A stretch of DNA of 64,000 nt from Bacilli bacterium (GTDB lineage: Bacteria; Bacillota_I; Bacilli_A; RFN20; CAG-826): assembly GCA_034176765.1 (NCBI GenBank), contig JAXFTN010000131.1:942-64941 (forward strand), read 5' to 3'. Positions 43,518 through 59,454 of the stretch are shown one piece after another (within the stretch, counting starts at the first letter, position 1; every line of letters starts with the position of its first letter). Under the pieces are notes generated by a model. The model saw only the letters and a program-made list of their open reading frames with translations. It did not search any database and was not told where the DNA came from. A program made the translations under genes and the position numbers.

Positions 43518-43527
43518 AATAATACCT

Positions 43528-45003
43528 CTAGAATAAGAATCCTTGAACTGCAGAAATAATGTAATTTGAAAAAATACCAATTAATACTGCAGAAACAGTT
43601 AAAATAATCAAGACAGTAGACATCAATTTATTTTCTTTTACTTTTGAAAATTCTTGATTTTTATCTCCTGGGAAGAATGCTTTTATTGTAATAGGTAATA
43701 AGTAAAGGGCTGTAAAAACAGCTGAAGTTAATAAAACAATACAAGCGATAATACCAACTGCTGTTGATCCACTATTTAAAGCACCCATAGCTAGATACCA
43801 TTTTGAAGTGAATGGACCAGTAGGTGGAATACCAATTAATCCTAGTGAACATATTGTATAGCACCACATTGTGATTGGCATTTGTTTTCCAACACCTGTT
43901 AATTCATCAACATTATGTTTTTGTAAATTGTGGATCATAATACCAGCTACTAAGAATAAGCAAACTTTAATACAAGCATGAGAAGCAATGTGTATAAAAG
44001 AACCTGCTAGTGATTGTTCGTTTAATAAACTGATACCTAATAAAATATAAGATAATTGAGAAACAGAAGAGTAAGCTAAACGTTTCTTAAAATTATTTTG
44101 TAATAAAGCAAGACCAGAGCCTAATAAAATTGTGATTAAAATTAATGTAATCCAAGTATATTGCAACCATGTTCCTTTTATAAAGTCTGTACCTACTATA
44201 AAAAATAAAATACGAACGATAAATAAGACACCAGCTTTAGTAATGATACCAGAAAGAACGGCTGATGCAGGAGCTGGAGCAACAGGGTGAGCTGTTGGTA
44301 GCCATTCTTGTAATGGGAACATACCTGCTTTTGTACCAAAACCAATAAATGCAAGTAGTAATGAAACTAAAATCAATGTTTTGTGTGCGTTAGCTTCAGT
44401 TAAATCTAGTGATCCACCTAAAACAAATTCGCAACCATTTGTTGTATAAGCATATAAAACAAAGACAGCAAATAATCCTAAAAAGGCACCACCTATTGAA
44501 TAAATTAAATATTTAATAGCAGCTCTAATTGATTCTTTAGTTTTATCATAAAGAACTAGTGGCATTGAAAGAAGTGTTAGCATTTCAAATCCAAGATAAA
44601 GGGTTATTAAGTTACCTGAATAACATAATAATAAAAGTGTTGCTTCAGACATTAAGTAGAAAGAGAAGAATTTATTTGAGTTCTCATCGTGTTCAAAATA
44701 TCTAAAAGCATATAAGCTAACTAATAAGAATATAACTGAAATGATGATAGCAAAGAAATTTGAAACCCCATCATTTTTAAATAAAATCAACAAATTATCA
44801 GTTAATTTAAAAAGTTCTACTCTTTGTCCACTAAAAATAGTTAAAAGAATGACGCTTATTACTATTAAACTTGATAGTGAAGAAATCAAAATGTTAATTA
44901 ATTTTTTATTTTGTGTTTTTAAAAAGTGAACTACTATTCCTAATATTAATGGAACAAGTATAGAAATAAACATAAAAATAAACATATCTTCCCTCCTATG
45001 CAA
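43528..45003 (-). CDS. Mrp antiporter subunit D-like, paralog 2
   Basis: WLPTAHPVAPAPASAVLSGI signature. Length is 491 aa. Confidence 0.75.
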   Translation of the reverse strand: MHRREDMFIFMFISILVPLILGIVVHFLKTQNKKLINILISSLSSLIVISVILLTIFSGQRVELFKLTDNLLILFKNDGVSNFFAIIISVIFLLVSLYAFRYFEHDENSNKFFSFYLMSEATLLLLCYSGNLITLYLGFEMLTLLSMPLVLYDKTKESIRAAIKYLIYSIGGAFLGLFAVFVLYAYTTNGCEFVLGGSLDLTEANAHKTLILVSLLLAFIGFGTKAGMFPLQEWLPTAHPVAPAPASAVLSGIITKAGVLFIVRILFFIVGTDFIKGTWLQYTWITLILITILLGSGLALLQNNFKKRLAYSSVSQLSYILLGISLLNEQSLAGSFIHIASHACIKVCLFLVAGIMIHNLQKHNVDELTGVGKQMPITMWCYTICSLGLIGIPPTGPFTSKWYLAMGALNSGSTAVGIIACIVLLTSAVFTALYLLPITIKAFFPGDKNQEFSKVKENKLMSTVLIILTVSAVLIGIFSNYIISAVQGFLF

Positions 45004-46489
45004 ACATATCTAAACCTTTTTGTATTACTACAATAATATAAGGTAGAGAGCCAATAACTATATTAATTAATGAAAAACCAATAACACTCAATTTAAAAGC
45101 AAATGAGCTTTTTTCTTTAATGGTTTCATTAGTAGCAACTTCAAGAGGAGAGTAAATAGTAATAATTGTTCTTAAGAAATAAATTGTATTTAATAATGTA
45201 GAGATAACTAATGATGCAAGAGCAAGTGATACTTGTAAAGTTGATATTGTTGCGTCTAGAGCACCCATAATTAATAAACATTTAGTAGCAAATCCAGCAA
45301 AGAATGGGAAACCGACCATAGATAGAGAACCTATCGTATATCCAATTCCTGCGATAATATCTTTCTTTCCAGACCCCTTTAAAGATCTAAATCTTGCATC
45401 CCCATTCGATACGCTAATTAATCTATTACTAGAAACAAATAATAAAGGTTTAGTACATGCATGACATAAAATTTGTATTATTGCACCAACAATACCTGCA
45501 GGTCCTAAGCCAATACCCATATAGATATAACCAATTTGAGCTGCTGATGAAAAAGAAATCATACGATTTATTTTTCCTTGTCTTATAGCTGAAAGAGAAC
45601 CAAATATCATACCTAGAGCACCAACGATTAAATAAACACCAGTAAGTTTTAAAGAGTTAATAGTATCCCAACCGAATGTACGATAAATCATTTTAATTAG
45701 TAAAATAATGTAACCTTTTGAAATAACACCAGATACGATTGATGCAGAAGTTGTTGTAGATTCACCATATGCATCTGGCATCCAAAAGTAAAATGGGAAC
45801 ATACCACTTTTAATGCCTAATCCAACTGAAATTAATAAACATGAACAAATAATTGCTGGAGTATTTTTGTTATTAGTTACTAAAGTTGTTAATGCTTCTT
45901 TAATGTAACTCATAGATAAATAACCAGTTAAGTCATATAAGAAAATAATACCAAGTAAGAATAGACCAGAGCCGATCAAATTAAATATCATATATCTTAT
46001 TGCAGCTACTGTAGTATTGCCTTTTTCTTTAATCATAATTAGGCCAATACTTGCGAGTGTAGATATTTCTAAGAAGACATAGCCTGTAAAGACGTCGTTA
46101 GTATAAATTAATGCAATTAAAGCAACTAGTACTAAGTTTAATAAAACATACATAAAGTGTTCTTTATTTTCACTTATATCTTCTTTAATATCTTTTTGTC
46201 CTCCGAGTAATGATAATAAAATAATAAGAGGAAAAAATATTGCAAATATTGATTCTAGAACACCAAATCTAATTTCATTACAAAATGGAGCAGGGAAATG
46301 ACCCATTGGATATTCTATGCTTCCTTCTTTTAGGGTTAGCATTAGAACACATATTCCAAATGCAACAGAAATACTATCAACAATAATTGTAATAATTCGT
46401 GATGCTTTTCCTTTTAATATTGCACATAAAACTACAGCAACAAAAGCTAAAATGATTGTAAACAAGGGGAAATTTTTAAAGAATTCCAT
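44996..46489 (-). CDS. Mrp antiporter subunit D-like, paralog 1
   Basis: WMPDAYGESTTTSASIVSGV is a degenerate version of the same signature. Length is 497 aa. Confidence 0.72.
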   Translation of the reverse strand: MEFFKNFPLFTIILAFVAVVLCAILKGKASRIITIIVDSISVAFGICVLMLTLKEGSIEYPMGHFPAPFCNEIRFGVLESIFAIFFPLIILLSLLGGQKDIKEDISENKEHFMYVLLNLVLVALIALIYTNDVFTGYVFLEISTLASIGLIMIKEKGNTTVAAIRYMIFNLIGSGLFLLGIIFLYDLTGYLSMSYIKEALTTLVTNNKNTPAIICSCLLISVGLGIKSGMFPFYFWMPDAYGESTTTSASIVSGVISKGYIILLIKMIYRTFGWDTINSLKLTGVYLIVGALGMIFGSLSAIRQGKINRMISFSSAAQIGYIYMGIGLGPAGIVGAIIQILCHACTKPLLFVSSNRLISVSNGDARFRSLKGSGKKDIIAGIGYTIGSLSMVGFPFFAGFATKCLLIMGALDATISTLQVSLALASLVISTLLNTIYFLRTIITIYSPLEVATNETIKEKSSFAFKLSVIGFSLINIVIGSLPYIIVVIQKGLDMFA

Positions 46490-46491
46490 AT

Positions 46492-46872
46492 CTAGTCCTC
46501 CTTGTGTTTGTGTATTGCATGATACACTTCATCTAAATTAAGAGTGTGATATTTTGAATATAACCTTACTGTTAGTGCTAAAGATATAGCTGTAACAGAA
46601 ACAGAAACAACAATACCTGTTAAGACTAGACCAGCAGGAATAGGATTTACATAAGATGAAGGATCGGTACTACCATTATTTAAGATTGGTGGGACACGAT
46701 CACCTTGAATATATCCCATAGATGCAAGAAATAAGTATGTTCCTGTATCCATAATATTTAACCCAATAATTTTCTTTAATAAGTTACGATGGAATAAGAG
46801 TAGAGCAAACCCAATGCCAAATAATAAGATGGCAACTACTTCTACTAAATGATCAAGTAAAGCTTGTAGCAT
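46492..46872 (-). CDS. Mrp antiporter subunit C-like (NuoK-like)
   Basis: LLFGIGFALLLFHRNLLKKIIGLNIMDTGTYLFL motif. ATGA overlap with the upstream gene. Confidence 0.7.
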   Translation of the reverse strand: MLQALLDHLVEVVAILLFGIGFALLLFHRNLLKKIIGLNIMDTGTYLFLASMGYIQGDRVPPILNNGSTDPSSYVNPIPAGLVLTGIVVSVSVTAISLALTVRLYSKYHTLNLDEVYHAIHKHKED

Positions 46873-46873
46873 A

Positions 46874-47767
46874 TTAGATTTCTCCTTTCTTAAATAATGA
46901 ATAGAATCCAAACATTGTGCATGTAACAACTAATCCGACACAAACATTTAAAATAAAGATTATGCCTCCACTTAAGATAGCACCAGGTTCGCCTAATGGA
47001 ATTACTGAATGCATACCATTAGCACCTGTAAAGAATGAATATGTTTTACATCCACAATATGTTAATAAAGATAGTGAAGTAATAACTTTGAAAGATTTTT
47101 GCTTGAAGAATCTTTCCGAATTATTAAAGCCAAATGCAATTGAATAAAGAATTAATCCTGCACCCATGATAGCTCCGCCGGAGAAACCTCCTCCAGGAGA
47201 AATGGATCCATTTAATACTACATATGCACCGAATAATAAAATAATAGGAACAAGGATAGAACAAGTAATTTGTAAAATTGGATCTTGTACAATTTTAAAT
47301 TTTTCTTTTAATGTTGCATTGTCTTTAAAACCTTGTAATAAAATCATTACACAAGTAACAGCAGTAAAAAGAACAAAAGATTCACCAAGAGTATCAAATG
47401 CACGATAATCTAAAATCATACCTGTTACAAAGTTGGTTGCGCCTGTATCACCAATACCATCCTTAATATATTTATCAATTATTTCATTTAGAGTAGGATT
47501 ATTTAATTCATCTCCAAAGACTGGTAAGAATGTAACACAATATAATAAGGAACAAATAAATAATAATGATGCAACAATTGCTATAAAATAATAAATTCCA
47601 GATTCAAATTTATGAGATTTCTTTTTAATTGCAGCAGTTGCTTGTTTGTTAGGTTTTTTAGCTTTTATAGTATCATCATAATTAACAACTAAATCTTCAT
47701 CGTTTTCAATATTTGAAAGCAAATCTTGACTTTCACCTAAAAAGTTTTTATTTTTCATGAGATTCAC
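46874..47767 (-). CDS. Mrp antiporter subunit B-domain protein with hydrophilic N-terminal extension
   Basis: GMILDYRAFDTLGESFVLFTAV is the MnhB signature. Confidence 0.65.
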   Translation of the reverse strand: MNLMKNKNFLGESQDLLSNIENDEDLVVNYDDTIKAKKPNKQATAAIKKKSHKFESGIYYFIAIVASLLFICSLLYCVTFLPVFGDELNNPTLNEIIDKYIKDGIGDTGATNFVTGMILDYRAFDTLGESFVLFTAVTCVMILLQGFKDNATLKEKFKIVQDPILQITCSILVPIILLFGAYVVLNGSISPGGGFSGGAIMGAGLILYSIAFGFNNSERFFKQKSFKVITSLSLLTYCGCKTYSFFTGANGMHSVIPLGEPGAILSGGIIFILNVCVGLVVTCTMFGFYSLFKKGEI

Positions 47768-48080
47768 CTTCTTTTATTTCTACTTGAGATGATTCTTCAA
47801 GTACACTATTTTCATTGTGTTTATCATCGACTTTATTTAAGTTAGAATCAATTTGTTTAATCTTCTTTAAAGTTAAGAAAAATAAAACACTTGTTACACC
47901 TGCACCAACAGCAGCTTCCGTAATTGCTAAATCAGGTGCTTGTAATAAAACCCAAATAACAGACATGACTACTGAATATGAACTAAAGATTATAATAGAT
48001 GTTAATAAATTCTTACTTAATCCAGCAGCAATAGCACAGACAACTAAAAAAACTAATAAAATAATTTCAAATATTTCCAT
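47748..48080 (-). CDS. Small MnhB-N-terminal-like (DUF4040-type) membrane protein
   Basis: Three helices. Occupies the MbhD/E position of Mbh-type clusters. Confidence 0.5.
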   Translation of the reverse strand: MEIFEIILLVFLVVCAIAAGLSKNLLTSIIIFSSYSVVMSVIWVLLQAPDLAITEAAVGAGVTSVLFFLTLKKIKQIDSNLNKVDDKHNENSVLEESSQVEIKEGESHEK

Positions 48081-48442
48081 TAGTTGTCACCTTCTTCCTT
48101 ATCTTCTACTTTTTCACTAGAATCAACTTGCGTTTGATTAACTTCTTTTTTTACTTGATCGTCAGTTAAGACTTCAAGTTTAGAAATAAAGTGACTTGCT
48201 ACAGGACTTGTTAGCCATAAAAAGATAACAATAAAGAATAATTTTATAGATGTTGCATTAAATCCATTAGCAATAGCAATTCCTAAGATAATACAAAATA
48301 AACCCATCGTATCTAATAAAGCTGCTGAGTGCATTTTGTTTAAAACGAATTTAAATTTATAAATTCCAATAACTCCTATAATAAATAGGAAAAGGCCTAA
48401 AAGAATAAAGAAAGCAGAAAAACCAAAAGTTACCCAAGTCAT
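48080..48442 (-). CDS. Mrp antiporter subunit G-like
   Basis: VLNKMHSAALLDTMG matches the MnhG RxHAA region. Length is 120 aa. Confidence 0.7.
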   Translation of the reverse strand: MTWVTFGFSAFFILLGLFLFIIGVIGIYKFKFVLNKMHSAALLDTMGLFCIILGIAIANGFNATSIKLFFIVIFLWLTSPVASHFISKLEVLTDDQVKKEVNQTQVDSSEKVEDKEEGDN

Positions 48443-48795
48443 TATTTTTCATCCTCCTTTTCTTCTTTTTTATTATCTTCTTCAATTGTAGGAATAATAT
48501 TAGTTGCTTTATGTTCTTCGATATAGCGATTAATAAAGACATTACTTAAAACGACAACTGATAAGAAAGATATTAAAACATAAATAATACATACATCACT
48601 TAAGTATGATTGCTTTAAAAATACTGAAAGAATAGCAATAATTGAAGTAACAAAAGTACCAGTCATATTGATAGTAACAATACGATCAGTTACACGAGGG
48701 CCTATAATAGTTTTAATAAGAATAAATAATAGACCAATACCTAAAAGGCATAATGTTCCAATAATTAGATATTCAAAAGCTAGTTCTGGTGTCAT
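48442..48795 (-). CDS. Mrp antiporter subunit F-like
   Basis: Three helices, 117 aa, positioned between the E and G subunits. Confidence 0.6.
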   Translation of the reverse strand: MTPELAFEYLIIGTLCLLGIGLLFILIKTIIGPRVTDRIVTINMTGTFVTSIIAILSVFLKQSYLSDVCIIYVLISFLSVVVLSNVFINRYIEEHKATNIIPTIEEDNKKEEKEDEK

Positions 48796-49289
48796 TATTT
48801 TTTGCCCTCCATTCTTCTTAATAGTTTAACTAATGTACTATTTTCAATTCCTTCAAAGTATTCTTTTCTTAAACAATGAACAATAAAAACACCACCATTT
48901 TTCTTTGTTTTATCACAAGAAATAGTGATAGTTCCTGGAGTAAGAGTAATAGAATTTGCTAGTAATGAAATTAGTAATTCGTTTTCTAAATCAATGTGTA
49001 TTTTGATAATCTGTGGTTCAGGAGTTTGTTTTCTTTTTAATATTAAAGAGACAACTTTTAAATTTGAAACTATAACATTAATAAATAAAACAATTCCATA
49101 AGCAATAAATAAATGAATGTGCTTTATAAAAAAAATATCTGTTTTAAAGCTCCATTTTGTAAATTTAATCATAAACCAATATATTAATGCACTTAATAAA
49201 AGGCCAATGATAACAATTTGTAGAAATTTTGTATCAAATGCAAAATGAGCATTCAATAATAACCATATTAAAAAAATGATTATAAACAT
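48795..49289 (-). CDS. Mrp antiporter subunit E-like
   Basis: LANSITLTPGTITI is the MnhE signature. RBS AAGGTGGAG precedes the ATG at 49289. First gene of the minus-strand operon. Confidence 0.7.
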   Translation of the reverse strand: MFIIIFLIWLLLNAHFAFDTKFLQIVIIGLLLSALIYWFMIKFTKWSFKTDIFFIKHIHLFIAYGIVLFINVIVSNLKVVSLILKRKQTPEPQIIKIHIDLENELLISLLANSITLTPGTITISCDKTKKNGGVFIVHCLRKEYFEGIENSTLVKLLRRMEGKK

Positions 49290-49469
49290 TTCTCCACCTT
49301 CTTTCACCTTTAAAACTATACCACTATAAGATTTTTAAATCAATTATTACATAGTAATAATATAGTATTTATCATAAATATTTTTTTATTAATGAAATAT
49401 GTTTTTCTTAACAATAAAGTACAAAAAAAATAAAATTTGTTTTTTTTTATCAAAACTAGTCGTTATTAG

Positions 49470-49503: not shown

Positions 49504-50811
49504 ATGAGTTTATTTAGTTCTAGCATAGGTAGACATTTAAACGGCCATAAAGAATTATCAAAACATGCCGAAATAATTGATCTTCGTGCGAAAGCTGGAC
49601 AAAAAGTTTATTTCCCTACTATTTGTTCAAATAATACTCCACTTAATGTTTTAGTTAAACCTGGAGATAAAGTTAAAGCTGGACAAAAAATAGCAGAAAG
49701 AACTGATTTTTATGTTCCAATTTATGCATCTGTATCTGGCACTGTTTTAGATGAAGAAGTCCTATTTAGTACAAATGTCAATAAACCTATCAAACACATC
49801 GTTATTGAAAGCGATGGTACTCACAAACAAAATAGGAAACTAAAAACTGTTACTTTAGAAAGTACTCAAGAAGAAATTTTCAAGGCTATTAAAGAAGCAG
49901 GTTTAGTTGGTCTAGGGGGTGCTGGGTTCCCTACTTATGTAAAATATAATAACCCACAAAATATCCACACATTACTTGTTAACGGAGTAGAATGTGAACC
50001 ATTCTTAACAACTGACTATGTTCAAATGTCAAGAGAAGTTGAATATTTAATGAGTGGTTGTGAATTATTAATGAAAGCAAGTGGAGCTGAAAAAGCTATC
50101 ATTGCTATTAAAGTTCATAAAGAAGATGTTAAAAATGCGGTTAATAGTAAATTAGCAGAACATCCTAATATTAAATTAGTTGAAGTTCCTGATAAATACC
50201 CAATGGGTTGGGAAAGAACTTTAATTAGACAAATATTTAAGAAGACTTATAACAAATTACCTTCTGAAGTTGGTATTGTTATAAATAACGGTCAAACAGT
50301 TATAGAACTTGCAAAAGTATTATTAGAAGGTCATCCTATGACTGAAAGAATGGTAACTGTTTCAGGTGACGCAATTAAAGAACCACATAATGTTTTAATT
50401 AATATTGGTACTCAAGCTAAAGAATTAATTGAAGCATGTGGTGGTATCACAGAAGAAGACTGTAATTTAATTCCTGGTGGTCCAATGTGTTCAAAGGCTG
50501 TTAATAATGATGTATTCCCATTAAATATGCAAATGGGTGCACTTACTATATTAAAAGTAAGAACATTTGTCGAAGAACCATGCTTAAGATGTGGTGCTTG
50601 TACAGGTCATTGTCCAGCAGGTCTTCAACCAGTTGAAATTAGAAGTGCTTTAAAAGCAAAAGATTACGATAGATTATTAAAACTTGATGTCTTATCTTGT
50701 GTCGAATGTGGTATGTGTTCATATACATGTCCTTCTCGTATTGAACTTACAGATGCTGTTAAGAACGCAAAACCAGTTGTCAAATTCAAGATGGCACAAG
50801 CAAAGAAATAA
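49504..50811 (+). CDS. rnfC: Rnf complex subunit C (NADH-binding, 2x[4Fe-4S])
   Basis: GLGGAGFPT NADH-binding loop. Ferredoxin motifs CLRCGACTGHCP and CVECGMCSYTCP are present. Confidence 0.9.
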   Translation: MSLFSSSIGRHLNGHKELSKHAEIIDLRAKAGQKVYFPTICSNNTPLNVLVKPGDKVKAGQKIAERTDFYVPIYASVSGTVLDEEVLFSTNVNKPIKHIVIESDGTHKQNRKLKTVTLESTQEEIFKAIKEAGLVGLGGAGFPTYVKYNNPQNIHTLLVNGVECEPFLTTDYVQMSREVEYLMSGCELLMKASGAEKAIIAIKVHKEDVKNAVNSKLAEHPNIKLVEVPDKYPMGWERTLIRQIFKKTYNKLPSEVGIVINNGQTVIELAKVLLEGHPMTERMVTVSGDAIKEPHNVLINIGTQAKELIEACGGITEEDCNLIPGGPMCSKAVNNDVFPLNMQMGALTILKVRTFVEEPCLRCGACTGHCPAGLQPVEIRSALKAKDYDRLLKLDVLSCVECGMCSYTCPSRIELTDAVKNAKPVVKFKMAQAKK

Positions 50812-50823
50812 GGAGGTAAGAAA

Positions 50824-52434
50824 ATGGCTTTTAAGACAAATTCAGCTCCTTATCAAAGAGCTAAAAAATCAACTCTACAAATTATGATAGAGTTAGCAAT
50901 TGCACTTGCAATTGTTTGGATTGCTGCGATTGTTACAACATTTATTAAATTAGGTTCTCCATATGGTGTTAAATCTATTTTGTTAATGGTTGTATCATTA
51001 GCTACTACAGCAGTTTGTGATGTTTTAACAACATTATTTAGAAATTTTAGAGTTCTAAAAGGTAAAGAACTTGGAAAAAAGATACTTTATGATTTAGTTC
51101 ATAATTATTCTTGGATTACTGCAATGATTCTTACTTTAATTTGCCCTGTCTGGACAAGTTATTATGCAATCATTTGTGGTTCAATCTTTGCTACTTTAGT
51201 TGTTAAAAATTTATTTGGTGGTTTTGGATCAAACATTTTCAACCCAGCTGCTTTTGGTAGAATTTTTATTCAACTATGTTTCTCATTAGCAGTTCCTGCA
51301 GGAATTACTAATGGTGTTGTTTCTGGAGCTACATTAACAGGTGTTGTTAATTCAAGTCAACAATGGCTTGGTGCTTTAGAAATCGATGGCTTTGGAATTA
51401 AAGAAATCTTATTAGGTACTTATTTTGGTACAATGGGTGAAACATTTACTATTCTTCTTTTAGTTTTAGGTGTTGTCCTTGCTATTAGAGGAGATATTAA
51501 CTGGAGAGCTCCTGTATTCTATGTAGGTACTGTCGCTGTTACTTCAATAATAATTGCATTAGTATTAGGATTTGAAAATCCTTTATTATATGTTGTATAT
51601 CATCTAGGTTTAGGTGGATTAATGTTTGGTGCTGTATTTATGATTACAGACCCTGTCACAACTCCTACTGCACCTGTTGGTAATTGCTTTGTTGGAGTAT
51701 TTGCAGCATTAATGACTGTTTTATTAAGAATTGCTACAAATGGTCCTGAAGGTGTTGTTTACTCAATTGCACTTGTTAACTTAATTACTCCAGCTATTGA
51801 TAGAATCTGTGTTGGTAAAACATCTGCTCATAAAGGAGTTAAATATGGTGTAACATTTGGTACTCTAGCAGCTTCTATCTTATTGTGTGTAGGTTGTTCA
51901 TGGGCTTTAAACGGTGGTCGTGAAGTCAATGAAATTAATGGAATTTCACGTAAAGAATATGATGAATTAAAATCATATGTAAATTTTGAATTCATGGATG
52001 AAAAAGGTTATGAATTCATGAAATATGAAAAAACAATTGGCTCATATAGTAGTCTAACTTCTGTTGGCAATTGTTCATCTGCATATAGTATCATTGATGA
52101 AAATAATAATGTAGTTGCTGCTGTTTACTGTGTTCAAGTTAGTGGTATTTCAATTGATAATGGATATAATGTTTCTGAGAAAACTGGTGTTGCTTACGTT
52201 GCTATTTCAACAACAACTGATCAAATTATTGATATGTCACTAGTTAAAGTTCCATATGTTGGAGCATATTTAGATAAAGTTAATGGTGGAGTTAATGATT
52301 TTGATTATGCAAATAATAATATTTTAGATAAAGAACCAAATCAGATTATTACAGGTGCTACTTATTCAGCAATAGGTATTAAAAATCTTGCACAAGCTGC
52401 CGTTGATGTTTATCAAGGCGAATATAAAGCATAG
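50824..52434 (+). CDS. rnfD: Rnf complex subunit D fused to a C-terminal FMN-binding (RnfG/NqrC-like) domain
   Basis: NqrB/RnfD core with FMITDPVTTPTAPVG. A ~170-aa extension contains the flavinylation-type motif IITGATYSAIG. Confidence 0.8.
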   Translation: MAFKTNSAPYQRAKKSTLQIMIELAIALAIVWIAAIVTTFIKLGSPYGVKSILLMVVSLATTAVCDVLTTLFRNFRVLKGKELGKKILYDLVHNYSWITAMILTLICPVWTSYYAIICGSIFATLVVKNLFGGFGSNIFNPAAFGRIFIQLCFSLAVPAGITNGVVSGATLTGVVNSSQQWLGALEIDGFGIKEILLGTYFGTMGETFTILLLVLGVVLAIRGDINWRAPVFYVGTVAVTSIIIALVLGFENPLLYVVYHLGLGGLMFGAVFMITDPVTTPTAPVGNCFVGVFAALMTVLLRIATNGPEGVVYSIALVNLITPAIDRICVGKTSAHKGVKYGVTFGTLAASILLCVGCSWALNGGREVNEINGISRKEYDELKSYVNFEFMDEKGYEFMKYEKTIGSYSSLTSVGNCSSAYSIIDENNNVVAAVYCVQVSGISIDNGYNVSEKTGVAYVAISTTTDQIIDMSLVKVPYVGAYLDKVNGGVNDFDYANNNILDKEPNQIITGATYSAIGIKNLAQAAVDVYQGEYKA

Positions 52435-52446
52435 GAGGTAAGTACG

Positions 52447-53007
52447 ATGAATAAATTAGTTAAATTGCCATTATTCCTAGGCGCAGTCGGATGTATTTGT
52501 GGTGGCGTTCTTGCTGCTGTAAATTTTGTTACAGAACCAGTTATTGCTGCTAATGAAGAAAAGAAAGCAAATGCTGCTTTCTATGAACATTTTTCTAATT
52601 TTAGTAAGAAAAATGTTGTAACAGTAAAAGATGAGCTTGCTTCTGCAGGTATTACTCAAAAATTTTATTGTTTTGATGAATCATTAACATTTATTGGTAC
52701 TGTATATGAATGTTCAGTCGTTGGATATGCTGGTAAAAGTACACCAATCAAATTTACAGTTTCATTTGCTAATGGAGCTCCTAATCACTATGTTGAATTA
52801 AGTAACGGCGAATCTGCTGAAGGCAAAAAATTTATGGATTGGCTTAAAGAAGATGTCAATGGAAATCGTTTATCAAATCTAGAAGAAGGTAAAACAGTTT
52901 CAGGTTCATCTATTTCATATAAAGCAGTTGATGGTGCAGTAAAGGCATGTTCAGCTGACTACCTTGCGGAACTTGAACATGTTCCAACTTTTATAGAAAA
53001 TGAATAG
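52447..53007 (+). CDS. rnfG: Rnf complex subunit G (FMN-binding)
   Basis: N-terminal membrane anchor. FMN_bind-like motif KTVSGSSISYKAVDGAV near the C-terminus. Confidence 0.75.
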   Translation: MNKLVKLPLFLGAVGCICGGVLAAVNFVTEPVIAANEEKKANAAFYEHFSNFSKKNVVTVKDELASAGITQKFYCFDESLTFIGTVYECSVVGYAGKSTPIKFTVSFANGAPNHYVELSNGESAEGKKFMDWLKEDVNGNRLSNLEEGKTVSGSSISYKAVDGAVKACSADYLAELEHVPTFIENE

Positions 53008-53021
53008 GAGGGTAAATAGTT

Positions 53022-53681
53022 ATGAAAAAATTACAAACATTTTTAAATGGTTTATTATTTGAAAATCCTACTCTTGTTATTTTCTTAGGTATGTGCCCTG
53101 CTTTAGGAACAACAAATACTGTTGAAAATGCTACATATATGTCATTATGTGTATTATTTGTTTTACTTCTTTCAAATATTATTATTTCATTGATTAGAAA
53201 AATCGTTCCAAATGAAGTAAGAATTCCTGTTTACATTATTATCATTGCAACTCTTGTTACAATTGTTGATATGTTATTCCATGCATATTTACCAGATAAA
53301 GTTTATTCTTCATTAGGTTCATTTATATCATTGATTGTTGTTAACTGTATTATTTTAGGAAGAGCAGAATCATTTGCTTCTAAAAATAAAATCGGTGATT
53401 CAATTATCGATGCATTAGGTTACAGTGCTGGTTTTGCTGGAGCTATTATTATTGTAGCTTTCTTCAGAGAATTATTAGGCACAGGATGTTTATCATGGGG
53501 TAGCAGTTCTGTTGATCTATTCTCTGATTATAAAATTTCTTTATTTGCATCTAATGCTGGGGCATTTATTGCATTGGGTATCGTAGTAGGTATTTATTCA
53601 GCAATTATGAGTGCTATAAAAAATCATAAGGCAAAAAAAGCTGCATTAGCTAAAGAAGCTAATGTTGAAGCTACAAAGTAA
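53022..53681 (+). CDS. rnfE: Rnf complex subunit E
   Basis: ENPTLVIFLGMCPALGTTNTVENA matches the RnfE/NqrD signature. Confidence 0.9.
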   Translation: MKKLQTFLNGLLFENPTLVIFLGMCPALGTTNTVENATYMSLCVLFVLLLSNIIISLIRKIVPNEVRIPVYIIIIATLVTIVDMLFHAYLPDKVYSSLGSFISLIVVNCIILGRAESFASKNKIGDSIIDALGYSAGFAGAIIIVAFFRELLGTGCLSWGSSSVDLFSDYKISLFASNAGAFIALGIVVGIYSAIMSAIKNHKAKKAALAKEANVEATK

Positions 53682-53696
53682 GGAGGAATAAAAGAA

Positions 53697-54275
53697 ATGG
53701 ATTTATTTGCTATCGCATTTGCTGCTTTACTTGGCAGTAATATTATTCTTTCAAGATTTTTAGGTATTTGTCCTTTCTTAGGAGTTTCTAAAAAAACTTC
53801 TAGTGCTGTTGGCATGGGTTTAGCATTAATTGCTGTTGTTACTTTATCAGCTTTATTATGTTTTGCACTTGATAAACTACTTGTTTTATTAGGAATGGCA
53901 TCTTATCTAGAATTAGTTGTTTTCATTCTTGTAATTGCTTCATTCGTTCAATTATTAGAATTTTTCTTAAAGAGATTTGTTCCAAGTTTATATAAATCAC
54001 TAGGTGTTTATCTTCCTTTAATTACAACAAACTGTGTTGTTTTACAAGTATGTTTAGATCTTGTTTCAAGAGAATATAACTTATTACAAACTTTAGTTTA
54101 CGCAGTTAGTGTATCAGCAGGTTATATGCTAATCATTGTTCTTTTCTCTTTAATTAGAACTCGTTTAGATAATCAACCTAATATGCCTAAAGCATTTAAA
54201 GGAAATGCAATTGCCTTAATTACAGCTGGATTAATGGCTATGGCTTTCATTGCATTTAGTGGTTTTAGCTTCTAA
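53697..54275 (+). CDS. rnfA: Rnf complex subunit A
   Basis: ILSRFLGICPFLGVSKK matches the RnfA/NqrE signature. Confidence 0.9.
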   Translation: MDLFAIAFAALLGSNIILSRFLGICPFLGVSKKTSSAVGMGLALIAVVTLSALLCFALDKLLVLLGMASYLELVVFILVIASFVQLLEFFLKRFVPSLYKSLGVYLPLITTNCVVLQVCLDLVSREYNLLQTLVYAVSVSAGYMLIIVLFSLIRTRLDNQPNMPKAFKGNAIALITAGLMAMAFIAFSGFSF

Positions 54276-54493
54276 TGATATTCACTCAAGAAACTGGTAA
54301 TATATGGGTTCAAATAGGTATTTTACTTGTATGTATTGCATTATTTGTAGGTACTTATTTATTGAATAGACATACAAAAAAGCCAGATGGATGTGAAAAT
54401 GTTAGTGAGCATTGTACAGGTTGTACAATCTCTTCCTGTTCTCATCATCCAAATAATTCTAAAGAAGAAAAAGGAGAAGAAAAAAATGATTAA
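54275..54493 (+). CDS. Small single-pass membrane protein with Cys-rich tail (CxnCxxCxxxxCxHH)
   Basis: Translationally coupled between rnfA (ATG overlaps its stop) and rnfB (8-nt overlap). One helix, then CENVSEHCTGCTISSCSHH. Confidence 0.4.
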   Translation: MIFTQETGNIWVQIGILLVCIALFVGTYLLNRHTKKPDGCENVSEHCTGCTISSCSHHPNNSKEEKGEEKND

Positions 54494-54800
54494 AATTTTA
54501 TTAGCTATGGCTGTTTCTTTAGGAATAGCAGCTATATTAGGTTTTGGACTTGCACTTGCTGATAAATTCCTTAAAGTTGAAGAAGATCCACGTATTGAAA
54601 AAGTTACTTCAATGCTACCTGGTGCAAACTGTGGTGGTTGTGGCTTCCCTGGATGTTCTGGTTATGCATGTGCATTAGTTGAAAAGAAAGTTGATTCTTT
54701 AGCAGCTTGTAAAGTATCAAAACCAGAAGCAAAAGAACAAATTAAAGCTTATTTAAAAGAGACACCAGGACCTGATGGAACTACTCTTGATTTAAAATAA
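54486..54800 (+). CDS. rnfB: Truncated RnfB: N-terminal membrane anchor and Cys-cluster module only, no polyferredoxin domains
   Basis: RBS AAAGGAGAAG is present. LPGANCGGCGFPGCSGYACAL matches the RnfB N-terminal Fe-S module. The ORF stops after 104 aa with no CxxCxxCxxxCP ferredoxin motifs. An immediate terminator follows. Confidence 0.65.
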   Translation: MIKILLAMAVSLGIAAILGFGLALADKFLKVEEDPRIEKVTSMLPGANCGGCGFPGCSGYACALVEKKVDSLAACKVSKPEAKEQIKAYLKETPGPDGTTLDLK

Positions 54801-54803
54801 ATT

Positions 54804-54828
54804 AAATGGCCGAAAGGCCATTTTTTTA
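54804..54828 (+). terminator. Rho-independent terminator after rnfB
   Basis: Hairpin AAATGGCCGAAAGGCCATTT followed by a T-run. Confidence 0.75.
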
Positions 54829-54938
54829 TTGAGTTTATGGTTAAAAACAATAATAATATTTCGATAAAAATATATTGATTTAAATATATGTATTTGTTAA
54901 AATATATGTGTCTTAAAAATGGAGGTAGACAGAAAATT

Positions 54939-55901
54939 ATGAAAAAATCAAAATTATTATTAATTCCTGCTGTTCTTGCTCTTGGATCATTAGCATCATG
55001 TGGCGGAACAAAAGAAGTTTCTCTTGGATTAGGCTATGTAGCTTCATTTGCTGATTCACATGGAAAAATGCAATTAGAAGTTAGTGTAGCTTCAGTTGGT
55101 TTTGATAAAGATGGTAAAGTTCTTGATGCAAGATTTGACACAATTCAAGTCACACATGCTGCTGCTAAAAACGCTGATGGATCAATTACTTTCAGCACAC
55201 CATCTGCAACAAACGATAATGGCGTTAAATCTAAACTAGAATTAGGTAAAGATTACAACATGAAACCTGTTAGTGCTTTAGGTCTTGAAGTCGATACTCA
55301 AATTGAAACTTTTGCTGATTTCTGTGTTGGTAAAACAGTAGAAGAAATTAAAGCAGCTGAATCTGTTGAAGGTGTTTCAATTGTTGTTTCAAGTTATGTT
55401 AGCGCATTAGAAAAAGCATATGCTTCAAAAAGAGAAGCTGTTTCTTACAAAGGCGAATTAAAAGCTGGCGTTGGTATGGCTGGTACACTTAATGCAAAGA
55501 AAAATGAAACTTCAATTACAGTTAATGCTTCATTAGTAGCTGATTCTAAAGTTGTTGCATCTTATACAGACTGTGTTGTTCACCAATTCAGCGGTGCTGT
55601 TGAAGGTGACAAAGTGGTTGTTTCATCTAAAGCAGACCAAAAATATGTTGTAAATGGAAAAATCACATCTAAATATGATTTACACGAAGCTTATGGTATG
55701 GGCCAAACTGGTGAAAAAGTTATCTTAGAATGGGACGTTCAAGCAGAAAACTTTGATGCTGCAGTTATTGGTAAAACAGCAGATGAAATTAAAGCATTAA
55801 AAGATATCGAAGGTTGTACAATGGTAATTACAGATATGATTGGTGCTACTGTTGAAGCTGTTACATACTCAGGTATGGAACACGTTGGTCCACAAGCTTA
55901 A
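54939..55901 (+). CDS. Surface lipoprotein with two internal repeats; candidate flavinylated (FMN-binding-like) ApbE substrate
   Basis: RBS GGAGG is present. Lipobox LASCGG. The two halves are related (VEEIKAAESVEGVSIVVSS versus ADEIKALKDIEGCTMVITDMIGATVEAV). The second half carries a D-x-x-x-G-A-T motif. Confidence 0.45.
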   Translation: MKKSKLLLIPAVLALGSLASCGGTKEVSLGLGYVASFADSHGKMQLEVSVASVGFDKDGKVLDARFDTIQVTHAAAKNADGSITFSTPSATNDNGVKSKLELGKDYNMKPVSALGLEVDTQIETFADFCVGKTVEEIKAAESVEGVSIVVSSYVSALEKAYASKREAVSYKGELKAGVGMAGTLNAKKNETSITVNASLVADSKVVASYTDCVVHQFSGAVEGDKVVVSSKADQKYVVNGKITSKYDLHEAYGMGQTGEKVILEWDVQAENFDAAVIGKTADEIKALKDIEGCTMVITDMIGATVEAVTYSGMEHVGPQA

Positions 55902-55949: not shown

Positions 55950-55995
55950 GTTTATTTTAAATAATGAATAGGGTAATATATAGATGGGTGAAATT

Positions 55996-57174
55996 ATGAA
56001 AAAGGCGTCAGTTTATTTATTACTAATTTGTTTATTATCATCATGCAGTTTGAAATATAATTATGAAGTTAATCCATATGATGTTATGGGTGTTATTGAT
56101 GATAATGGTGAATATATACCAGCTTTGAATTCATTTGTAAAATTGCAGATGTATAATGAAAATGAATTAAAAGAAGTAAGATCTTCTTTTTCGAGTACAA
56201 TTCAAAAAGTACATATTATTTCAGATAGTTATCATTCTTATTTTGGAAATAATAATGTAAAAACAATTAATGAAAACTATGGTAAAGAAGCTATAAATGT
56301 TGACCCTTTACTTATTGATTTAGTTAATAAAGGTATTGAATTAACAAAATTAACAAAAGGCATTTTTAATATTACTATGGGACAGACTATTTCTTTATGG
56401 AGTGATGCTTTTAATAATATCGATAATTCGTTAACAGCTGATGATCCTAATCATGAAGAAATAGAAAAAAGTTTAACTTCTATTATAAATTATGAAGAGA
56501 TTGATAATTATATTAAAATAGACCAAGAAAATTCAACTATTAAAATAGAAACTAAAGAAGATGCCTTAATGCCTGTTTTATTAAATTTTGGAGGCATTTC
56601 AAAAGGATTTGCTTTAGATCAAGTAAATGATTTGTTTTTAAATAATCAACCAGGAATAATTTCGGCTGGTTCTTCTTCAATATCATTAAAAGGTACGTTT
56701 CCTTTAAGTAATCGGAAATATTATTTAATTAATATTCGAGAACCTTCTTTTTATAAGTCTTCTCAACAAGAAGTGTTTTTACAAATAGCTCTAGAAAAAT
56801 ACAATAACATTTCAAATTCGGGTGATTATGAAAAGTTTTTCTTTACCAAAGATACAAATACTTTAAGATCTCATATTATAAATGCTTCGACTGGATTTAG
56901 TGATAATTATCATCGTTCTGCGATTGTGTTTAGTGAAACATATTCATATGTATTAGACGTTTTATCAACAACACTTATGAACCTTGAAACTATAGACGAA
57001 ATTGAAGAAATGGTAAAAAGATTTGAAGATTTTTATAAGACTTCAATTGCATATTGTATTATTGATGATTTTGAAAATGGATTTAAATTATCTGTTAATG
57101 AAAAGTTTAATGAATGTATTGTTGAAAATAAAATATCCTCGATAATCAAGGATATTCAAGTAATTAAGAATTAA
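55996..57174 (+). CDS. apbE: FAD:protein FMN transferase (ApbE family), lipoprotein, copy 1
   Basis: Lipobox LLSSCS. ApbE motifs are present: FGGISKGFALDQV, ISAGSSS, SHIINASTG and LDVLSTT. Confidence 0.7.
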   Translation: MKKASVYLLLICLLSSCSLKYNYEVNPYDVMGVIDDNGEYIPALNSFVKLQMYNENELKEVRSSFSSTIQKVHIISDSYHSYFGNNNVKTINENYGKEAINVDPLLIDLVNKGIELTKLTKGIFNITMGQTISLWSDAFNNIDNSLTADDPNHEEIEKSLTSIINYEEIDNYIKIDQENSTIKIETKEDALMPVLLNFGGISKGFALDQVNDLFLNNQPGIISAGSSSISLKGTFPLSNRKYYLINIREPSFYKSSQQEVFLQIALEKYNNISNSGDYEKFFFTKDTNTLRSHIINASTGFSDNYHRSAIVFSETYSYVLDVLSTTLMNLETIDEIEEMVKRFEDFYKTSIAYCIIDDFENGFKLSVNEKFNECIVENKISSIIKDIQVIKN

Positions 57175-57703
57175 ATAAGTGTTCAATGTGATGGTCAACT
57201 TTTAATAAAACAAGAGAAGTTAATAAAGCAGTAAGTAGACCTGTTATAATTCCTGAAATCATTAAAATAGGATAATACATAACTAGACCAAAAGTATTAT
57301 ATATAATTGATACAGCAATCATTTGACCAACACCATGGAAAACAGCACTTACACATGAAAGTCCATAAATTGAAAATTTCTTTAGGTAATATAATATAAC
57401 AACGATTAATGTTGATAAAAACCACCCACTAAGACTTAAAATGAAAGCTACAGAAAATAGACCTGTTCTTAAAAGACCAACAATTAAAACTCTTAAGAAG
57501 CCAATAGAAATATATTCTTTTGGTGAATAATAATATAATATAACTAATCCAATTGTATTTGCTAATCCTAGTTTTACGCCAGGAATAGCTATTGGAAGAG
57601 GTATCATTGATTCAACTAGATTTAAGATAATTCCTAATGCTAGGAATAAACTTAATCTAGTTATTTTTTTGATTGTTTTACTAGATTTAGAAGTGTTTTC
57701 CAT
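57164..57703 (-). CDS. Gx-transporter-family membrane protein (heptaprenyl-diphosphate-synthase-component-I-like)
   Basis: IPLPIAIPGVKLGLANTIGLV matches the family's PGxKLGLAN signature. About 5-6 helices. Its start overlaps the upstream NusG-II gene's stop. Confidence 0.55.
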   Translation of the reverse strand: MENTSKSSKTIKKITRLSLFLALGIILNLVESMIPLPIAIPGVKLGLANTIGLVILYYYSPKEYISIGFLRVLIVGLLRTGLFSVAFILSLSGWFLSTLIVVILYYLKKFSIYGLSCVSAVFHGVGQMIAVSIIYNTFGLVMYYPILMISGIITGLLTALLTSLVLLKVDHHIEHLFNS

Positions 57704-58148
57704 AATTTATTACACCTCCATATCCAAGTGTTTCATTACCTTCGCTATCATCTGTTGAATTGATTACTACACGTACATCGTTTGGAATACATACAATTGG
57801 TAAATTAGCGATATTAACCCATCCTTGTTTTTCACATGTTAAGTTAGGACAAGTAACATCGTGAACACGTATTCCTTTATCTTTATTAATATCAATATAA
57901 AAATCTCCAAGTAAATCAGGATATTTTTCTTTAGTTAAAACAATTGTATAAGTTTCATCAAGGTTATCAATATCAGTTCGATATTCTTTTAATTCTTCAC
58001 TTTTATAATAAATACAAACATATCTATTGCCAGAAAAGGCGCTATTATAAATAAAAATACCCACCATTAAAGAAATTGATGCTAGTGCACTAACAGCAAT
58101 TATGATAATATCAATAATTTTGAACTTTAATGAAAAATTTCTATTCAT
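57687..58148 (-). CDS. NusG-domain-II-containing small membrane-anchored protein
   Basis: N-terminal helix plus a ~110-aa beta-rich domain. Conserved partner of Gx-transporter/ApbE genes. ATG overlaps the upstream apbE stop. Confidence 0.45.
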   Translation of the reverse strand: MNRNFSLKFKIIDIIIIAVSALASISLMVGIFIYNSAFSGNRYVCIYYKSEELKEYRTDIDNLDETYTIVLTKEKYPDLLGDFYIDINKDKGIRVHDVTCPNLTCEKQGWVNIANLPIVCIPNDVRVVINSTDDSEGNETLGYGGVINYGKHF

Positions 58149-59454
58149 AATACACCTTACAATTTGAAGCTTTAATTTCTACATCTTTTTTTAAAGAACT
58201 ATCAATATAAATGTTTAGCTTATTATCTTTGTCTGTATCCATAATAATTAGGGAAAGATCTTTATCAGGATATTTAGCTAATAAATTATTTCTGTATGTG
58301 AAACATTGTTCTAGAGGCAAATTAACAAACATTGTTGAAAGAGCATCAAGTTGAGCATTAGAAAATGTCTTAGAAATAATAGTTACACTTGAATGTTCTT
58401 GACTACAATCACCAGTATAAGGATTAATAATGTGATGACGATATAATTTATTATTATCATCAGTATTAATATAATATGAATTATGATTATAATTACCAGA
58501 TGTTGAAATACCGTAATCATAATTTACACTTAAAGAAAAAGCTATATCTCTAATAATAGAGTTTCCTGTGCGAGGATCAGCAAAATTAAATAATTGATAT
58601 CCTTTTTCAAAAAAAGTAGGCGCAGTTAAAGAAGCTAATGAACTAGAACCAGCATTAATAACTCCATCAGTATAATTTAATGATAAGAATTTTTCTTTAA
58701 TGTAATCAACTGCTAACCCTTTTGCAATACCACCTGTAGTTATAACGGGACGATATTTAGAAGTGACTTTATTTCTTTCTAGTATGGAACCATTATATTC
58801 TTTATTATCAATAGCATTAAATGTAATTTCTTTTTTTTCATCATTAAAAGTAAACAATTCTTTAACTTCATCCATAGTTGGTGTAGCATTTGCGTATTTT
58901 AACATTTCAAGATTTTGTTCTTGACTATAGTAAGGGTCATAAAGATGAACATCATTACCTTCATCTAAGACATTGTAAAAAATGTCATCCCAAAAAGAAT
59001 TTAATTTACCAACAAAGAAATTAAAATAACCATTAGTTTCCAGTGTCATATCATATCCAACTTTTAGTAAAGAATATACTTTATCATCACATTTAATTGG
59101 AACATTACTACCATATGAATCGTTAATTACTTTAATCGAGGTAATAATGTTGCCATCTTCATCTTTATAGTTATAGTGTCTATCAAATAATTTATGTAAA
59201 GAATTGATTTGATCTAAAAAGATACTTTTAACTTTTTCATCAAAATTATCTTCATAAGTTTTCTTTTCGTTTTTAAAGTATTTAAAAGTCATTACCGTAT
59301 TAAATGGGACTACAGGTATATTAGTAGATGTTAAAACTGAAGCTGTACTATTAGATACAACTAACCATTCTCCTTTATTAATGACTTTATCTGCGCATGA
59401 AATTAGCGAAGAGGAGCAAAGTAAAATTGATAAATATTTGAATTTGTTTTTCAT
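58141..59454 (-). CDS. apbE: FAD:protein FMN transferase (ApbE family), lipoprotein, copy 2
   Basis: Lipobox LISCAD. ApbE motifs are present: TGGIAKGLAVDYI, INAGSSS, HHIINPYTGD and LDALSTMF. Confidence 0.72.
   Translation of the reverse strand: MKNKFKYLSILLCSSSLISCADKVINKGEWLVVSNSTASVLTSTNIPVVPFNTVMTFKYFKNEKKTYEDNFDEKVKSIFLDQINSLHKLFDRHYNYKDEDGNIITSIKVINDSYGSNVPIKCDDKVYSLLKVGYDMTLETNGYFNFFVGKLNSFWDDIFYNVLDEGNDVHLYDPYYSQEQNLEMLKYANATPTMDEVKELFTFNDEKKEITFNAIDNKEYNGSILERNKVTSKYRPVITTGGIAKGLAVDYIKEKFLSLNYTDGVINAGSSSLASLTAPTFFEKGYQLFNFADPRTGNSIIRDIAFSLSVNYDYGISTSGNYNHNSYYINTDDNNKLYRHHIINPYTGDCSQEHSSVTIISKTFSNAQLDALSTMFVNLPLEQCFTYRNNLLAKYPDKDLSLIIMDTDKDNKLNIYIDSSLKKDVEIKASNCKVYYE

Follow-up and report, generated by a model that had tools for sequence, protein, structure and literature searches.

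The Rnf complex is a central energy-conserving pump of anaerobes, in which a small, flexibly tethered [4Fe-4S] domain of the canonical RnfB subunit hands electrons to the intramembrane [2Fe-2S] cluster of RnfA/E. The cryo-electron microscopy structures of Rnf resolve this small domain poorly, and ferredoxin is assumed to be accepted by the polyferredoxin domain of RnfB. Structurally characterised RnfBs comprise a transmembrane (TM) helix, a small flexible domain with one cluster and, at the C-terminus, a domain with two to seven [4Fe-4S] clusters that accepts ferredoxin (PMC12174285, a 2025 review). Within the same superfamily, NQR depends on the small protein NqrM, which is needed to insert the cluster of NqrD/E and is encoded in the nqr operon beside apbE (PMC12174285; PMC6209661), while the small, Cys-rich peptides of family PF12669 are encoded downstream of feoB or are fused to it (PMC8749426). 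Here we describe a variant rnf operon from a Bacilli bacterium (assembly GCA_034176765.1, contig JAXFTN010000131.1, positions 942 to 64,941 of the forward strand; these 64,000 nucleotides are referred to as the window), in which two short, overlapping open reading frames (ORFs), ORF1 and ORF2, stand where a single rnfB would be expected. Judged by its sequence, ORF2 is a genuine RnfB cut down to its TM helix and the small PF04060 [4Fe-4S] domain, without its ferredoxin-accepting part, and the pair of ORF1 and short RnfB is a real, conserved and lineage-wide architecture in uncultured gut bacteria. The well-studied Rnf machine thus has a real variant, in which the input subunit is reduced and an unnamed conserved family of small proteins accompanies it; the literature searched describes neither an RnfB devoid of ferredoxin domains nor a gene for a small Cys-rich protein placed between rnfA and rnfB.

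A preliminary description of the window, made from the letters alone, had reported ORFs of 72 and 104 aa, each with an N-terminal TM helix followed by a cysteine cluster, and had assigned only the second to the N-terminal Fe-S module of RnfB. Both statements held: the lengths of the frames and the quoted cysteine strings were exact, AlphaFold placed a helix in both proteins, and ORF2 was recognised as RnfB by domain, family model, solved chains and fold alike. Its match to the PF04060 'FeS' domain reached 37.3 bits (cutoff 23), RnfB models aligned to it over positions ~4-90 only, leaving TIGR01944 at 56.4 and thus below the full-length cutoff of 68.7, and a profile of 24 short homologues aligned to residues 4-88 of the RnfB chains 7ZC6_B, 9ERI_B and 8AHX_B (E 8e-21 to 7e-15). 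The anchor, hydrophobic over residues 3-25, was modelled as a helix of residues 2-28 with a predicted local distance difference test score (pLDDT) >90 and aligns with the anchors of 7zc6_B and 9eri_B; the model as a whole has a mean pLDDT of 90.6, and its fold matches 9eri_B and the N-terminal domain of the corrinoid iron-sulfur protein (CFeSP). The cluster ligands C49, C52, C57 and C75, invariant across the 24 short homologues, follow the spacing C-x2-C-x4-C-x17-C that ORF2 shares with the canonical RnfBs of C. tetanomorphum (7ZC6_B), A. woodii (9ERI_B) and A. vinelandii (8AHX_B), as it shares with them the TM helix, the PF04060 domain and the position as last gene of an rnf operon.

What separates ORF2 from these chains is the part that follows: they measure 174-333 aa and include a ferredoxin-like domain, whereas ORF2, for all its TM anchor, PF04060 domain and rnfCDGEA(B) operon context, ends after the Fe-S domain in a conserved tail, YLKxTPGPDG. 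No Fer4 family matched ORF2, no CxxCxxCxxxC motif occurs in it or in any frame downstream, and within the 64-kb window the motif CxxCxxCxxxCP is found nowhere outside RnfC, nor does the window hold a ferredoxin gene. Since every structurally characterised RnfB has such a C-terminal domain (PMC12174285), ORF2 is an RnfB without a defining part, in agreement with the earlier judgement that the absence of ferredoxin domains is unusual for Rnf. The remaining Rnf core appears intact, with matches of rnfC, rnfD, rnfG, rnfE and rnfA to their respective families and with all four cysteines of RnfA/E in place. Two further proteins resemble ORF2 in part. The N-terminal [4Fe-4S] domain of the CFeSP large subunit (4DJD_C, 2YCL_A) has the PF04060 fold and Cys pattern in common with it (root-mean-square deviation 1.1-1.4 Å over ~50 residues; E 2.3e-4), but is soluble, fused to a TIM-barrel corrinoid-binding protein and, unlike ORF2, lacks both membrane anchor and Rnf context. 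In NQR, the subunit through which electrons enter, NqrF, likewise joins a TM helix to a small flexible Fe-S domain that feeds an intramembrane cluster (PMC12174285), but it is unrelated in sequence and carries a flavin adenine dinucleotide (FAD)/NADH input domain, whereas ORF2 has no input domain. A longer reading of ORF2 from position 54387 (137 aa) was rejected, since its additional codons overlap ORF1, MI(K/E)IL is the start both in homologues and according to gene callers, and a Shine-Dalgarno sequence precedes the start at 54486.

The short lengths of both frames, the A7 run inside their 8-nt overlap and the 33 codons for which the frame of ORF2 stays open upstream of its ATG might be taken to mean that a frameshift, a premature stop or a misassembly has split a normal rnfB of 200-300 aa and that ORF1 is spurious. 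We hold this to be very improbable. The exact 104-aa ORF2 is indexed in 422 and the exact 72-aa ORF1 in 446 blocks of an assembly collection, more than 400 in each case and from many different samples, and the gene order was identical in all 16 loci fetched for these exact proteins, which come from animal-gut metagenomes. Diverged loci with 43-72% RnfB identity show the same two-gene layout, and neither the overlap nor the A-run is conserved there. The ratio of non-synonymous to synonymous substitution rates (dN/dS) against relatives is 0.19-0.31 for ORF1 and 0.11-0.22 for ORF2; both genes are under purifying selection. Moreover, no ferredoxin motif was found in any frame, the space downstream of ORF2 amounts to a mere 87 nt with the terminator hairpin included, and a fusion of ORF1 to ORF2 would be topologically inconsistent, as both have N-terminal anchors. 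An assembly error or a pseudogene is ruled out by the recurrence in assemblies, the diverged loci and the dN/dS values, and a programmed frameshift at the A7 run, or a fusion across it, was likewise rejected, with overlap and A-run absent in L017, L100, L103 and L104 and the fusion implausible in its topology. Far from being an odd or decayed single locus, the pair is conserved across a lineage: related loci carry the short pair and not an RnfB of 200-300 aa, and independent assemblies agree on it.

ORF1 belongs to a family that emerged stepwise. A search with the single sequence recovered 4 clusters, a profile made from the ORFs of diverged loci 228 proteins, and an exhaustive profile search 376 clusters at E<=1e-3, all of them 51-110 aa long. 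Members share a TM helix, the stretch (Y)xLNK(R/K)TPxPxGCE and, 3-8 residues further on, CxxCxxxxC, of which C47, C50 and C55 in ORF1 are invariant in the family alignments. AlphaFold models a helix over residues 3-33 of ORF1 (core pLDDT 93-95), and the basic NRHTKKP after the TM helix would, by the positive-inside rule, place the Cys site of ORF1 and that of RnfB on the cytoplasmic side. Scans of the window protein against Pfam and NCBIfam returned nothing significant, and a sequence search of the PDB yielded TM-helix noise only.

The short RnfBs, ~100-108 aa long with PF04060 as their only domain, make up a large family whose members are as little as ~45% identical and are annotated at most as 'MAG: Bacilli bacterium' (MAG, metagenome-assembled genome). 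When hidden Markov models (HMMs) of both families were run on all ORFs of 102 loci, brought to 104 by two later look-ups, ORF1-family genes turned up solely in short-RnfB loci and always between rnfA and rnfB, in 11 distinct loci (the group of the window, L017, L018, L020, L022, L023, L025, L100/101, L102, L103 and L104). At ~70 loci with a full-length RnfB (263-697 aa), no ORF1-family gene lies within ±8 kb. These full-length loci, which served as the negative set, stem from a profile search of genome contigs with the short RnfB, in which 6 of 80 loci among the matches listed carry a short form (L020-L023, L025 and the Bacteroidales locus L094). In a crude neighbour-joining tree (92 columns, without support values and indicative only) the short RnfBs form roughly one clade. 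L094 (8001-8417; MAG RUG12549) encodes a 138-aa RnfB without ferredoxin motif, followed 47 nt later by rnfC and accompanied by no ORF1-like gene; this RnfB groups among the ~300-aa Bacteroidales RnfBs and represents either an independent truncation or a deletion at the level of the MAG. A link of the PGPDG tail to the presence of ORF1 was considered and dropped, as the correlation is not clean: L019 is without ORF1 yet keeps a GPNG tail. In this same locus, ~900 bp between rnfG and rnfE (L019:4844-5771) hold no called gene.

Profile comparison shows a moderate similarity of ORF1 to RnfB itself. In hhalign, the ORF1 family aligned with the short RnfBs at 83-85% probability with a score of 32-33 over 53-54 collinear columns that span the TM helix and CxxCxxxxC; the 39-member ORF1 alignment gave 84.6% (E 6.8e-6, 54 columns) and a 7-member alignment only 31%. 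In a control of 150 column shuffles with the TM block held N-terminal, scores were 15.7 ± 2.8 with a maximum of 25.2, and none of the 150 reached the real score of 32. The view that ORF1 is a duplicated, stripped-down RnfB anchor thus appears moderately supported, and a duplication in tandem would also account for where the gene lies.

The preliminary description had also likened ORF1 to the FeoB-associated peptides, a comparison that fared less well. Like ORF1, PF12669 peptides are small and single-pass with a cytoplasmic Cys-rich motif, and they occur mostly in Firmicutes and Bacteroidetes (PMC8749426). The window protein itself stays far from the family threshold (12.8 bits against a gathering cutoff of 27, E 0.15), whereas among 39 members of the ORF1 family 17 have a match with E<=1, the best at 8.8e-6, and cluster P0142 has a precomputed PF12669 match; the proposed likeness is weakly supported and, for ORF1 itself, below threshold. 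The motifs also differ (Cx3-5Cx2-3Cx6-8C in PF12669 versus Cx3-9Cx2Cx4C in ORF1), as do the contexts, which is feoB in the one case and always rnfA-X-rnfB, never feoB, in the other (11 distinct loci); no feoB was called in the loci with gene tables. The ORF1 family also provides a first functional context for part of a poorly understood superfamily of PF12669-like peptides.

The other small membrane protein that ORF1 brings to mind is NqrM (DUF539, PF04400). Both are ~70 aa long with one N-terminal TM helix and are encoded near apbE in an operon of the RNF/NQR superfamily, and in both a Gly-flanked Cys (GSCGG in NqrM, xGCE in ORF1) stands 7-9 residues past the helix and is followed by a three-Cys cluster. 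They differ in spacing, NqrM having the layout TM helix, KxIxGSCGG, ~10 residues and CxCxxxC or CxxC...C where ORF1 has CxxCxxxxC, and in gene position, nqrM coming after the last structural gene of NQR and ORF1 between structural genes of Rnf. For profile comparison, eight genuine nqrM genes were recovered from chromosomes and megaplasmids filed in a plasmid collection. Several of the records (among hits H1-H7, including NZ_AP026896.1 with 4.9 Mb, NZ_OL790811.1 with 4.1 Mb and CP125156.1 with 5.4 Mb) are chromosome-sized, carry an nqr operon and are evidently mislabelled chromosomes. Against these eight NqrMs, the ORF1 profile attained 21.5% probability and a score of 21.3, inside the range of the shuffles, and PF04400 found no match at E<=10 among 7 ORF1 members or at E<=1 among 39; the comparison of short RnfB with NqrM was negative as well. 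ORF1 was therefore rejected as an NqrM homologue, the family profile and the profile score both being non-significant, and with a likeness confined to a single TM helix followed by conserved cytoplasmic cysteines it is an analogue at best.

Taking these results together, the interpretation we tentatively favour, and to which we would give a little less than an even chance, is that of a two-part electron-input module in which ORF1 is a metal-binding accessory subunit derived from the RnfB anchor and placed beside a minimal RnfB. Co-transcribed, ORF1 and ORF2 would form the cytoplasmic entry point for electrons in an Rnf complex that is specific to the lineage and whose small RnfB domain would pass electrons to the intramembrane [2Fe-2S] cluster of RnfA/E although the polyferredoxin 'antenna' is gone. 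ORF1, most likely born of a partial tandem duplication of 5' rnfB, would be a single-pass protein of 60-80 aa that holds its CxxCxxxxC, usually with a fourth Cys, ~10 residues from the cytoplasmic membrane surface; as a small extra subunit it could provide an Fe-S or iron centre next to RnfB and RnfA/E and make up, structurally or electronically, for the lost C-terminal domain of RnfB. With the antenna domain absent, the electron donor, a soluble ferredoxin or flavodoxin, would have to dock straight onto the exposed small RnfB domain. In its most specific form, which we regard as doubtful though worth stating, ORF1 would be a seventh Rnf subunit from a partial rnfB duplication and would build, together with the minimal RnfB, an Fe-S input module with two anchors and two centres. 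If this form is true, the complex would be the first natural Rnf to work without any ferredoxin-like domain, the polyferredoxin domain would be dispensable, and the donor (ferredoxin, flavodoxin or other) would dock directly on the mobile small domain.

A number of observations weigh against this favoured interpretation, and several of them fit instead a second explanation, in which ORF1 is an NqrM-like maturation factor of low abundance that transiently binds Fe or Fe-S, delivers it to the RnfA/E [2Fe-2S] or the RnfB cluster and is not part of the mature complex. The first cysteine, C40, is found in the majority of members, yet ~9 of 39 distant members have lost it, which leaves three invariant cysteines, and the Cys region of ORF1 is modelled as coil with a pLDDT of 55-69. 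A Shine-Dalgarno sequence is lacking before ORF1 in 10 of 10 loci (best match 4 nt), where the gene usually overlaps the rnfA stop, whereas AGGAG(G) or GGAGG precedes rnfA in 10 of 10, AGGAG(G) precedes rnfB in 8 of 10 (L022 has a GGAG of 4 nt instead, and L023 has no such sequence ahead of the assumed start) and at least GGAG precedes rnfE in 5 of the 7 loci scored. This points to translation of ORF1 by termination-reinitiation, possibly at lower abundance, and hints at sub-stoichiometric expression. ORF1 is moreover absent from two short-RnfB loci nested in the short clade, L019 and L021, which suggests a secondary loss and a gene that is dispensable in at least one sub-lineage, and the association with short RnfB may partly reflect shared ancestry instead of functional dependence. 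Along with the missing Shine-Dalgarno sequence, the loss in one sub-lineage and the variable first Cys, the weak tie to the iron-transport-associated PF12669 favours the maturation factor. As for the proposed duplication, the likeness of ORF1 to RnfB consists of a hydrophobic helix and a short three-Cys motif and could be convergent. Finally, the step from the small RnfB domain to RnfA/E requires no intervening cluster in canonical Rnf.

The maturation factor gains further from its model: the architecture of ORF1 parallels that of genuine NqrMs (one TM helix, a Cys 7-9 residues on, a three-Cys cluster, 65-86 aa in total), and NqrM has the corresponding role in NQR. It is set back by the missing PF04400 match and by the hhalign score below the shuffle maximum, by the higher score of ORF1 against RnfB than against NqrM, and by the position of ORF1 between two structural genes and not with apbE; besides, canonical Rnf builds the same cluster without such a factor, which leaves the exclusive tie to short RnfB unexplained. 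We rate a maturation factor as less likely than the accessory subunit, but as its main rival. Were ORF1 an independently evolved analogue of NqrM, it would suggest that a small Cys-rich chaperone in the membrane is a general requirement of RNF/NQR pumps whose RnfB is not a polyferredoxin. Either way, ORF1 would be a subunit not recognised before or the first candidate for a factor that assembles the intramembrane cluster in Rnf, an NqrM equivalent for Rnf being nowhere mentioned in the literature searched.

A third explanation dispenses with ferredoxin input at the RnfB/ORF1 end altogether: electrons would move mainly between NADH, via RnfC, and extracytoplasmic flavoproteins, and ORF1 and the short RnfB would serve a regulatory, sensing or structural (e.g. 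Zn-binding) function. The locus is indeed rich in extracytoplasmic flavin parts (an FMN_bind-type C-terminus on RnfD, an extra lipoprotein and two apbE genes), it has been proposed that Rnf clusters with multiple flavinylation sites supply electrons to acceptors outside the cytosol (PMC8238504), and the window is devoid of a ferredoxin gene, as noted above, although such a gene could sit elsewhere in the genome. Yet an active electron path through this branch is suggested by the strict conservation of all four [4Fe-4S] ligands in the short RnfB and of all four cysteines in RnfA/E, and the RnfD-FMN_bind fusion is found in part of the short-RnfB clade only (the RnfDs of L100, L102 and L104 have 372-401 aa); we judge this explanation improbable. 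For the module of ORF1 and minimal RnfB, in turn, the value lies in a widespread natural variant that has the small domain only and may serve as a minimal system for studying electron entry into RnfA/E and the need for the large domain. Its carriers are abundant uncultured low-GC gut Bacilli/Clostridia MAGs, and the variant bears on models of their energy metabolism.

The features of the operon are compiled in Table 1. The window has a G+C content of 28%, and the whole rnf cluster lies on the + strand in the order rnfC-rnfD-rnfG-like-rnfE-rnfA, followed by ORF1 and ORF2. The stop codon of rnfA (TAA, 54273-54275) shares one nucleotide with the ATG of ORF1 at 54275 (TAATG), and ORF1, which stops with TAA at 54491-54493, overlaps by 8 nt with ORF2, whose ATG at 54486 lies within ATGATTAA, 9 nt past AAGGAG, and whose TAA occupies 54798-54800. 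Overlapping stop and start codons thus flank ORF1 on both sides, suggesting translational coupling of ORF1 and ORF2, and a terminator follows solely after rnfB. The promoter candidate upstream of rnfC is weak, and promoter-like sites are not enriched in the AT-rich surroundings.

Table 1 Features of the variant rnf operon with its promoter candidate and its terminator (positions in the window).
Feature	Position	Strand	Description	Evidence
Sigma-70-like promoter candidate (weak)	49408..49436	+	TTAACA-17-TAAAAT, upstream of rnfC	Consensus scan, 10/12 matches
rnfC	49504..50811	+	435 aa; NADH/flavin mononucleotide (FMN) module and two 4Fe-4S motifs	TIGR01945 E 2.3e-103, above cutoff; PF01512, PF13375, Fer4 families
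rnfD	50824..52434	+	536 aa	PF03116 E 3.2e-61 over residues 5-331; weak PF04205 at residues 497-527
rnfG-like subunit	52447..53007	+	186 aa	TIGR01947 rnfG E 6.4e-7, below cutoff; weak FMN_bind E 0.007
rnfE	53022..53681	+	219 aa; GMCP and VNC cysteine motifs	PF02508 E 2.2e-56; NF009070 above cutoff
rnfA	53697..54275	+	192 aa; GICP and TNC cysteine motifs	PF02508 E 3.5e-51; TIGR01943 E 2.2e-62
ORF1	54275..54493	+	72 aa; single-pass membrane protein, motif KKPDGCE-x6-CxxCxxxxC	Profile family, alignments, predicted helix
Shine-Dalgarno sequence for rnfB	54471..54476	+	AAGGAG, inside the Lys/Glu-rich 3' tail of ORF1	
ORF2 (minimal rnfB)	54486..54800	+	104 aa	PF04060 E 2.2e-9
Intrinsic terminator	54804..54830 (hairpin 54804-54823)	+	AAATGGCC-GAAA-GGCCATTT and T-run; GC-rich hairpin closing the operon	Terminator scan
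apbE	55984..57174	+	Flavin transferase, accessory gene of the Rnf cluster	PF02424 E 1.6e-35

Several neighbouring genes concern flavins. RnfD (50824-52434) has a C-terminal extension of ~200 aa, encoded by the 3' ~600 nt, that ends in 'ITGATYSA', an FMN_bind-type flavinylation motif, and thus looks like an RnfD-FMN_bind fusion; a homologue of 619 aa in another locus (L103:4357-6216) has a full FMN_bind (PF04205) match. The rnfG-like gene, placed between rnfD and rnfE in all related loci, encodes 'VSGSSISY' where canonical RnfG/NqrC has SGAT. Between rnfB and apbE, a 337-aa lipoprotein (54888-55901) has no family match and two internal repeats (…GKT(V/A)EEIKA…(V/I)EG…); it is the variable spot of the locus, since most conspecific assemblies encode 319-320 aa here and L003/L011 have a call of only 141 aa (L003:6856-7281).

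Further downstream (55984-59454), the apbE on the + strand converges with three genes on the - strand: Hpre_diP_synt_I at 57164-57703, NusG_II at 57687-58148 and, at 58141-59454, another apbE. In L017, L018, L100 and L104, an apbE comes immediately after the short rnfB, and the whole apbE-NusG_II-Hpre_diP_synt_I set follows it directly on the same strand, so this set appears to be a conserved companion module of short-rnfB loci. On the other side, divergent from rnfC, a multi-gene Mrp/Mnh-type cation/proton antiporter cluster (40019-49307, - strand; MNHE, MrpF and MnhG domains) is kept next to rnfC in assemblies of the same species and is not found there in L017, L018 and L100; its adjacency to rnfC is probably not functionally obligatory.

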